DNA from: a virus
DNA length: 18,314 nucleotides
Direction: 5' to 3' (one strand)
Virus record (IMG/VR): IMGVR_UViG_3300031746_000251
The notes under the pieces are model-generated. The model worked only from the letters and a program-made list of their open reading frames with translations, was not told where the DNA came from and did not search any database. Positions 13,894 through 15,011 of the stretch are shown piece after piece. Within the stretch, counting starts at the first letter, position 1; each line of letters begins with the position of its first letter. The translations under genes and the position numbers were made by a program.

Positions 13894-14127
13894 TTACTTC
13901 CCGACTGGCGGCACGAGGTCGCGCACGTCTCCCTTGAGCGCCTTCGCGATCTCGATGACCGTCGTGAGAGGAGGGTTTCTCCCTCCGCGCTCGAGGAGGG
14001 AGACGTAGGCCACGCTGATGCCGAGCTTGTCGGCCAACTCCTGCTGGGTGACCTCTTTGGAGGTTCTCAGCAACTTCATGCTGCCGCCGAACTGCTTGAG
14101 GATGTTCTTCTTCTCGTTGGGCTTCAT
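13894..14127 (-). CDS. XRE-family HTH transcriptional regulator (77 aa), RM controller (C-protein)-like position
   Basis: 'VTQQELADKLGISVAYVSLLERGGRNPPLTTVIEIAKAL' is a canonical XRE HTH; ATG 14127 overlaps upstream TGA (ATGA); ORF-track N-terminal extension rejected. Confidence 0.75.
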   Translation of the reverse strand: MKPNEKKNILKQFGGSMKLLRTSKEVTQQELADKLGISVAYVSLLERGGRNPPLTTVIEIAKALKGDVRDLVPPVGK

Positions 14128-15011
14128 ATGTTCACCGTCCTTTTTCCGATCTTCACCTTGTCGATGGCCTTCTCGAGGTCCACTTGCATGGGGAGCTTGC
14201 CGCCGATGGTGCCGAAGACGGCACGCTCGATGACGCGGCTCTTGTATGCTTCCTTGCGGAGGTAGTCCTCTTCCCAAGCGCCCATCCAAGCCTTCTTGGA
14301 CTTCCGGTTGAGCCACTTACCGAAGTGCCGCTTGAGCTTCGTGATGCCGATGAGGTTCTCCTCCGAGATGCGGGGCCAGATGTCGAGCCAGATGCAGTCG
14401 TACTTTCGGTAGGGCTGCGGCTCCCAGATGCAGCTCGGGTCCCACCGGAAAGCATCCCAGTTGCTCACTGCTAGCTTGTTGCTCTCCTCTTCGGTCAGAG
14501 CCTTGCGGATGTGGGGAAGGACGAGTTCGATGACTTCGTCGCTCTTCTCCACCACCACGACCATCTTCACGCTCTTCTTGCGGAGGACGGGGATGAGGCT
14601 GGCGCCAAGGCCCAGGCCAGCGATGAGCACGCGACCGTGAGCGTGCTTCATGAGTGGGCGGCTCGAGTGGAGCTCGTAGGGAGCATCCGTCATCATGATC
14701 TCCCAGGTGCCCTCCACCTTGACGTTGAGCCTGGTGTAGATGCCTGGAGGGCAAACACGATCCGGTCTGCCCTTCATTGCCGCAGCCAGGTTGTCGAACA
14801 TGAGCTTTCGATCGGATGCTTCCGCTGCGACATGCTCGATGTGGGCGTTCTTGCGCTCACCCTCTGGGATGATCTTGTAGAGGGTACCGGCCATCTCGTG
14901 CTTGTTGGCGAGGAGCTTCTTGGCCGTGGTGATGTGCTTGGTGATGTCGTCGTTCATCTTCTTCAGCATCCGCATCTGCTGCGGGCTGATTCCGAGATCT
15001 TCGGACTTCAT
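14124..15011 (-). CDS. spermidine-synthase-like (PABS-fold) SAM-dependent transferase (295 aa)
   Basis: 'IMMTDAPYELHSSRPLMKHAHGRVLIAGLGLGASLIPVL...VKMVVVVEKSDEVIEL...KYDCIWLDIWP' parallels spermidine synthase 'IQLTERDEFIYHEMLVHVPL...KKVLIIGGGDGGVLREV...VEID..VI...FDVIIVDSSDP' (from memory); exact activity not inferable; no clear RBS at listed ATG. Confidence 0.65.
   Translation of the reverse strand: MKSEDLGISPQQMRMLKKMNDDITKHITTAKKLLANKHEMAGTLYKIIPEGERKNAHIEHVAAEASDRKLMFDNLAAAMKGRPDRVCPPGIYTRLNVKVEGTWEIMMTDAPYELHSSRPLMKHAHGRVLIAGLGLGASLIPVLRKKSVKMVVVVEKSDEVIELVLPHIRKALTEEESNKLAVSNWDAFRWDPSCIWEPQPYRKYDCIWLDIWPRISEENLIGITKLKRHFGKWLNRKSKKAWMGAWEEDYLRKEAYKSRVIERAVFGTIGGKLPMQVDLEKAIDKVKIGKRTVNI

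Follow-up and report, generated by a model that had tools for sequence, protein, structure and literature searches.

The DNA examined here is an 18,314-nucleotide window of the viral record IMGVR_UViG_3300031746_000251 (IMG/VR) and forms part of a 196-kb metagenomic contig that is tightly packed with small genes. On its minus strand, the window encodes a protein of 295 amino acids that an earlier sequence-only reading of the same DNA had described as a spermidine-synthase-like (PABS-fold) enzyme; the open reading frame (ORF) boundaries given there are exact. We find that the protein belongs to a family of predicted S-adenosylmethionine (SAM)-dependent methyltransferases whose core is related to that of the PABS enzymes. 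The coding sequence and the elements on which this assignment rests are as follows.

14124-15011, minus strand: target coding sequence with its translation, ATG to TGA, 295 aa; PHROG 15480, class-I SAM-dependent methyltransferase with a PABS-related core
14673-14693, minus strand: M107-T-D109-A-P-Y-E113, where the N-terminal beta-hairpin ends and the helix preceding beta1 starts
14604-14618, minus strand: motif I, G132-L-G-L135-G136, the SAM-binding glycine loop, aligned to G-G-G-D-G of E. coli SpeE
14547-14549, minus strand: E155, acidic residue ending beta2, at the position of the ribose hydroxyl ligand, aligned to the Glu of SpeE V-E-I-D
14454-14456, minus strand: D186, acidic residue of motif III, at the position of the adenine N6 ligand, aligned to the second Asp of SpeE I-D-D-G
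14373-14399, minus strand: motif IV, D205-C-I-W-L-D210-I-W212-P213, end of beta4, aligned to F-D-V-I-I-S-D of SpeE

The single sequence was compared with Pfam, NCBIfam and, by phmmer, PDB sequences, and the family was compared by means of profiles built from 29 and 150 sequences. On its own, the protein falls below threshold against the Pfam family Spermine_synth (PF01564; 16.1 bits, cut-off 22.9), scores 22.9 bits against TIGR00417 speE (cut-off 249.55) and 22.4 bits against PRK00811 (cut-off 260), and yields a best phmmer E-value of 0.12. At the family level, 18 of 29 relatives scanned with Pfam gave weak PABS matches (best E 1.8e-6), and the 29-sequence profile reached spermidine synthases among the PDB sequences at E 4e-8. 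The 150-sequence profile, run against PDB with hmmsearch, returned 34 matches, 25 of which are spermidine, spermine or thermospermine synthases (best E 1.6e-8). When this profile was aligned with E. coli SpeE using hhalign, query positions 113-243 were paired with SpeE residues 65-188 over 122 columns (probability 95.5%, E 1.4e-8). As a control, alignment of the family profile with human GAMT was not significant (5.5%, E 0.007). The SpeE and GAMT query sequences are identical to PDB chains 3o4f and 3orh, respectively. Based on these profile matches and alignments, the core is homologous to that of the PABS enzymes, and more closely so than to any other solved family. Judged by sequence, the likeness exceeds chance and PABS is the closest characterised family, so the proposed resemblance to spermidine synthase stands for the core.

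For the N-terminal substrate-binding region, where a parallel had also been claimed, sequence comparison gives the resemblance no support. All significant alignments begin at the Y112-E113 pair, approximately 20 residues ahead of the glycine loop, and none reaches N-terminal of residue 112; no family member matches the Pfam domain Spermine_synt_N. E113 is aligned to E65 in the Y-H-E motif of SpeE. The part shared with SpeE and PF01564 runs from this Glu through motif IV and includes the spacing of the glycine loop, the ribose Glu (E155), the adenine Asp (D186) and the first Asp of motif IV (D210).

We then counted residue conservation over 175 family representatives. M107, E113, G132, G134, G136, E155, D210 and W246 are invariant in all 175, and W212 is kept in 174. 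The signature of the family reads M-[ST]-D-[TA]-x-x-E, G-L-G-[LI]-G, D-x-I-[YW]-[FL]-D-I-W-P and W-M-G-x-W. Slightly more variable are D109 (D in 162, N in 10) and D186 (D in 159, N in 9). The motif set of class-I SAM-dependent methyltransferases is complete, with GxGxG and acidic residues at the end of beta2, after beta3 and at the end of beta4. All elements of the PABS Rossmann core (motifs I-IV, ribose Glu and adenine Asp) are likewise present. In contrast, both residues that define PABS enzymes, the glycine-loop Asp and the second Asp of D-S-S-D-P, are replaced. The G132-L-G-L-G136-A-S loop, correctly picked out from the letters before, is placed on SpeE G-G-G-D-G by the profile alignments with L135 facing the Asp. 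Position 135 holds L in 114 representatives, I in 53, M in 4, V in 2 and F in 2 and is acidic in none; the Asp that binds decarboxylated SAM (dcSAM), whose conservation had been proposed as a check, thus gives way to a hydrophobic residue throughout the family. The D-x-I-x-x-D-x-x-P segment, which had also been recognised, corresponds to D205-C-I-W-L-D210-I-W-P213. Within it, D210 is aligned to SpeE D158, the first Asp of D-C-T-D-P, and P213 occupies the place of the second, amine-binding Asp (P in 113 members, A in 21 and N in 8).

The residue at position 135 bears directly on the choice of cofactor. In PABS enzymes, the glycine-loop Asp pairs with the amine of dcSAM and shuts out the carboxylate of SAM (PMC1282579). 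The D103I mutation in Datura spermidine synthase abolished aminopropyl transfer and conferred SAM-dependent methylation of putrescine (PMC3725402). Because a hydrophobic residue replaces the dcSAM-selecting Asp while the generic SAM ligands are intact, the expected cofactor is SAM and the expected transferred group is methyl rather than aminopropyl. These residues make it very likely that the protein is a SAM-dependent methyltransferase and not an aminopropyltransferase, in agreement with the caveat in the sequence-only reading that activity could be methyl transfer. The same exchange is found in plant putrescine N-methyltransferase (PMT), which shares the PABS-type scaffold and in which a hydrophobic residue with a branched side chain stands in place of the glycine-loop Asp (Ile in PMT, Leu or Ile in the present family). 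PMT is approximately 60-70% identical to plant spermidine synthase (SPDS) and retains the putrescine site (PMC3725402, PMC1282579), whereas identity to PABS is approximately 20% in the present family, which has no second Asp. Since the family occurs only in phages and plasmids, it appears to have arisen independently of PMT.

To describe the fold, we used two AlphaFold2 models (m8f808ddad700 and m13034bb3b1ae). The window protein was modelled with a predicted local distance difference test (pLDDT) score of 86.3 and a predicted TM-score (pTM) of 0.80, and a compact relative of 197 aa was modelled with a pLDDT of 92.9 and a pTM of 0.88. Both models have N-terminal beta-strands that include a hairpin, followed by a helix, a five-strand Rossmann core and a long C-terminal helix. 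Two further elements are found in the window protein only: a basic helix at the N terminus (residues 10-35) and a tail modelled with low confidence. As in PABS enzymes, a small beta-stranded element precedes the Rossmann core in both models. Features that differ from PABS are the lack of a sequence-detectable N-terminal domain, the modelled core of only five strands and the typical length of family members, approximately 200 aa. Neither model has the C-terminal beta6-beta7 hairpin, whose place in the sheet might be taken by the three or four strands at the N terminus. As modelled, the fold is that of a class-I methyltransferase and not specifically that of PABS. The top structural match of the model is GAMT (3orh), from which the modelled protein also differs in its five-strand core and the apparent lack of the beta6-beta7 hairpin. 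A counterpart of Glu45, which together with Asp134 binds the guanidino group in GAMT, can be assigned only with uncertainty.

The window protein matches PHROG 15480, annotated 'methyltransferase', at E 1.8e-25 (90.9 bits; residues 27-261 on profile positions 3-223 of 245). A word-indexed search found 31 relatives, and 6935 cluster representatives at E ≤ 1e-3, including 1538 at E ≤ 1e-30, came from an exhaustive HMM search; identities of homologues to the window protein range from 83 to 29%. Relatives were found on 101 viral contigs of 10-529 kb and in cultured phages of Stenotrophomonas, Microcystis, Caulobacter, Microbacterium and Bacteroides, where they are annotated as 'methyltransferase', 'hypothetical protein' and, once, 'spermidine synthase'. 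Approximately 1600 plasmid records carry a homologue, mainly from Klebsiella, E. coli, Salmonella and Enterobacter; 1472 are conjugative, and the plasmid types include IncHI1A, IncHI2A and IncHI1B/FIB replicons and MOBH. Three plasmid homologues, each 29% identical to the window protein, are listed here.

8974-9609 of locus L087 (NZ_CP134088.1): WP_000835428.1
8001-8609 of locus L089 (NZ_CP091926.1): WP_000833773.1
8001-8609 of locus L090 (NZ_CP070891.1): WP_040222755.1

The usual label of plasmid homologues is 'hypothetical protein'; 'spermidine synthase' and 'polyamine aminopropyltransferase' appear occasionally. The latter two labels are very probably wrong, because the dcSAM-selecting residue is never present in the family. 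Collectively, these distributions indicate that the family is large, uncharacterised and confined to mobile elements, namely phages and plasmids.

The conserved residues suggest how such an enzyme could work. SAM would be held by the G132-L-G-L-G136 loop, with E155 contacting the ribose hydroxyls and D186 the adenine N6, and the hydrophobic residue at position 135 would admit SAM so that its methyl group is moved. D210-I-W212 at the end of beta4, together with the M107-x-D109-x-x-x-E113 element, would place the acceptor atom and probably remove a proton from it. We infer this acceptor-handling role by analogy with PABS, PMT, GAMT and Trm5; accordingly, M107-T-D109-A-P-Y-E113 is a putative acceptor-site element, and D210 is a candidate catalytic or acceptor-binding Asp.

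We also examined the genes around the target. Those of the window are listed below.

13894-14127, minus strand: XRE-type helix-turn-helix (HTH) gene, 77 aa; HTH_3, E 5.2e-14; its own ATG overlaps the TGA of the target (ATGA)
13296-13892, minus strand: methyltransferase gene, 198 aa; phrog_799 DNA methyltransferase, E 8e-43; PADLOC MTase_II, E 7e-07
10433-13129, minus strand: vault-like protein, 898 aa (889-898 aa); MVP_shoulder, E 1.9e-24; Vault_3, E 2e-9
9026-9517, minus strand: phosphatase of the HAD type, 163 aa, related to the polynucleotide kinase-phosphatase domain; phrog_415, E 1.8e-17
7451-8344, minus strand: 297-aa protein; phrog_10081 'transposase', E 2.6e-20

Downstream of the target, the order is the 77-aa HTH gene, the 198-aa methyltransferase gene, a 65-aa ORF and the vault-like gene. 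Given the ATGA overlap, the target and the HTH gene are probably co-translated. The HTH gene is found at the equivalent place in one related viral locus (L002) and is absent in another (L007). The 198-aa methyltransferase is unusually small and has no Pfam match; it contains the motifs E-P-C-A-G-N-G and N-P-P-F and covers just the catalytic part of phrog_799 (positions 200-373 of 458). The target had been described as lying between structural and regulatory genes. The HTH gene does adjoin the target, and the 198-aa methyltransferase gene intervenes between it and the vault-like gene. On the upstream side (15012-15027, minus strand), no recognisable Shine-Dalgarno sequence is present in the 13 bases from the upstream stop codon to the target ATG (tagGTTCTTACCTCACatg). 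Initiation in the host may be independent of such a sequence, or the target may be translated by coupling to the gene upstream. Neither tRNA genes nor Rfam matches were found in the window.

To determine whether any gene accompanies the family more widely, we surveyed 66 non-redundant viral loci, comparing with Pfam the plus-strand ORFs closest to the family gene, two per side, and clustered 2616 ORFs of at least 60 aa lying within 4 kb of the family gene. No fixed partner gene recurred in the 66 loci. The clusters present in more than seven loci consist solely of antisense frames of the target gene. Long antisense ORFs over the methyltransferase gene, seen in 26-28 loci (L009-L083), are frame artefacts and not genes. 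As conserved GC-rich coding sequence yields such artefacts, ORF-based neighbour analyses call for caution. The next clusters, of three or four loci each, encode dCTP deaminase-like proteins, RecT, CCA-adding enzyme, DnaB and HNH proteins. Overall, the adjacent genes are a mixture of YqaJ, RecT, ERF, helicases, DnaB, HNH, ParB, ArdC-N, deaminases and some RNA-repair enzymes.

The sequence-only reading had further suggested that the product modifies cargo or nucleic acid associated with the vault-like protein. The order of a 167-aa gene of no assigned function, the target, the HTH gene (where present), the 198-aa methyltransferase gene and the gene resembling major vault protein (MVP) is found in the closest relatives only. 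Loci L007 and L008 encode an MVP-like protein at 88% identity and keep the 198-aa methyltransferase beside the target. L002 retains only the latter gene of this arrangement within the range fetched. Across the phage clade, a DNA methyltransferase gene is adjacent to the target or, in L002, within approximately 2.3 kb downstream. In L002, no MVP gene was found within 6 kb, nor was one seen in plasmids or around the remaining 60-odd viral loci, and the approximately 1600 plasmid contexts are unrelated. MVP synteny is thus limited to the locus of the window (L001), L007 and L008, a near-identical clade among the 66 loci, and we rejected a functional tie to the vault-like protein. Because the synteny is confined to the closest relatives, the vault link is a lineage-specific gene order and not a property of the family. 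The only report of MVP homologues in phages is a 2023 preprint (10.1101/2023.11.10.566534).

On the scale of the 196-kb contig, the target sits among early or accessory genes. The contig resembles that of a large (jumbo-like) phage, based on its dense small genes, which include Acb2/Tad1-like, Tad3-like and Cpn10 genes. Acb2/Tad1 and Tad3 are sponges for signalling molecules, with anti-CBASS and anti-Thoeris functions. Two Pfam matches on the same contig, outside the window or at its edge, fall in locus L001.

1648-1869 of locus L001: Acb2/Tad1-hairpin
4521-4886 of locus L001: Tad3

These genes and that for the Cpn10 co-chaperonin lie 5-8 kb away from the target. Their presence near the target indicates that counter-defence and accessory genes are abundant in the region.

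Taken together, our favoured reading is that the protein is a SAM-dependent, likely N-methylating, methyltransferase of mobile elements with a PABS-homologous core and, preferably, a nucleic-acid substrate; we give this reading a probability of about 0.6. For the substrate taken separately, nucleic acid is the most likely candidate at roughly even odds, with DNA placed above RNA. Within that option, we favour the DNA of the element itself, which would be protected by methylation against restriction or defence in the host. Several observations point in this direction. Most family members are basic: the median isoelectric point (pI) is 8.9, and 65% lie above 8. Zinc-finger-like N-terminal extensions in two members hint at nucleic-acid binding: residues 19-53 of P0058 match Pfam Phage_zn_bind_8, a putative DNA-binding zinc finger (E 1.3e-6), and residues 7-24 of P0027 form an N-terminal CxxC...CxxC motif. 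A weak match to the MADS N6-adenine methyltransferase Mad2 was obtained with PADLOC (E 1.7e-6, motifs I-IV only). The neighbours are replication, recombination and nucleotide-metabolism genes, and a DNA methyltransferase gene adjoins a family member in two unrelated element lineages, the phage clade described above and IncHI2 plasmids. In the IncHI2 plasmid locus L089, a gene for a 416-aa 'site-specific DNA-methyltransferase' (8778-10028) lies directly downstream of the family member, an order that echoes the arrangement of target, HTH gene and 198-aa methyltransferase gene in the window. The family also resembles orphan DNA methyltransferases of phages and plasmids in being encoded by a stand-alone gene in early or accessory regions, which in the phage clade and in IncHI2 plasmids lies beside a gene for a bona fide DNA methyltransferase. 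Such orphan methyltransferases protect incoming DNA (PMC11541004).

Other observations weigh against this reading. Unlike orphan DNA methyltransferases, the family lacks the (D/N/S)PP(Y/F/W) motif, with D-I-W-P as its motif IV, and has no recognisable target-recognition domain. Nor does it resemble the C5-cytosine enzymes, which have a catalytic Cys in P-C-Q/E-N-V: that motif is absent, and no column holds Cys in more than 40% of the 175 representatives, the richest reaching 40%. No match to a Pfam DNA methyltransferase family was obtained, and NCBI annotates the plasmid homologues as hypothetical proteins and not as DNA methyltransferases. In a crude motif test of the viral loci, a DNA methyltransferase neighbour was found in the close clade only. 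The nearest characterised relatives, PABS by sequence and GAMT by structure, act on small amines or guanidino compounds and not on nucleic acids. The five core strands in the models make the fold atypical, and we found no paper on the family, on the plasmid protein accession or on the IncHI2 'spermidine synthase' annotation.

An alternative is a small-molecule N-methyltransferase, similar to PMT or GAMT, that methylates the amine or guanidino group of a host polyamine or another cationic metabolite; such an enzyme could, for instance, shift polyamine pools or change a molecule used by the host in signalling or defence. PABS and GAMT both hold a nitrogen nucleophile with the Asp at the end of beta4, and D-I-W-P-x-x-S-E-E parallels D-T-Y-P-L-S-E-E of GAMT, the D-x-aromatic-P segment being aligned to Y-D134-T-Y-P with low confidence. 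The conserved W190, W212, W242 and W246, together with D109, E113 and D210, would suit a pocket for a cation. PMT sets a precedent for turning a PABS scaffold into a methyltransferase through the same Asp-to-hydrophobic change (PMC3725402). The anti-defence genes in L001 (Acb2/Tad1 and Tad3) make small-molecule counter-defence plausible. Despite these parallels, we consider a small-amine substrate unlikely: the second putrescine-binding Asp is missing, no metabolic partner genes recur, the hhalign comparison to GAMT was not significant, and the mostly basic proteins, a few with zinc-finger N-termini, fit it poorly. A true aminopropyltransferase that uses dcSAM and supplies polyamines to condense phage nucleic acid, which the likeness to PABS initially brings to mind, is extremely improbable, even though PABS is the nearest family by sequence and some records automatically label homologues as 'spermidine synthase' or 'polyamine aminopropyltransferase'. 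L, I or M replaces the glycine-loop Asp, mutation of which abolishes SPDS activity (PMC3725402), in 171 of 175 representatives, and none has an acidic residue there; the second Asp of D-S-S-D-P is missing, Spermine_synt_N is absent and scores lie far below the equivalog cut-offs. In addition, the window and the 21-kb locus L001 contain neither SpeD nor any other polyamine pathway gene. Polyamine synthase identity was therefore rejected on catalytic residues and curated thresholds, and the suggested role in condensing packaged nucleic acid is not supported.

Macromolecules other than DNA were also considered as substrates. A base N-methyltransferase acting on tRNA or rRNA could, for example, shield tRNA from host nucleases or tune translation. 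RNA-repair genes do neighbour the family, but in only approximately 3-5 of 66 loci; similarities are weak and generic to class-I folds, and no THUMP, PUA or S4 RNA-binding domain is present, which makes this substrate quite unlikely. We think methylation of protein, on an N-terminal amine, lysine or arginine, very unlikely. The spermidine-synthase-like C-terminal domain of METTL13, as well as RMT2 and the PRMTs, offers a comparison for such an activity, but there is no sequence-level signal to protein methyltransferase families and no conserved partner or candidate substrate gene nearby. A different view of the origin of the family is that it represents an independent mobile-element offshoot of the aminopropyltransferase lineage and a new N-methyltransferase class, marked by the M-S-D-T-x-x-E and D-I-W-P motifs and the five-strand core. 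Its members would act on incoming DNA or on a host polyamine or defence metabolite and so aid establishment of the element in new hosts. We regard this proposal as tentative and somewhat doubtful.

At its most modest, our analysis adds one more orphan class-I phage methyltransferase, and the vault and polyamine story fails. The family to which the gene belongs is very widespread on mobile elements, from phages of approximately 10 to more than 500 kb to some 1600 plasmid records. If the favoured enzyme carries out a non-canonical DNA modification, or if the family methylates a host metabolite, it would be a new anti-restriction or anti-defence item on clinically important plasmids. Should the family prove to be an independent offshoot of the aminopropyltransferases, an unrecognised anti-defence or epigenetic function would be carried by approximately 1600 enterobacterial plasmids, including IncHI1 and IncHI2, and by many phages.

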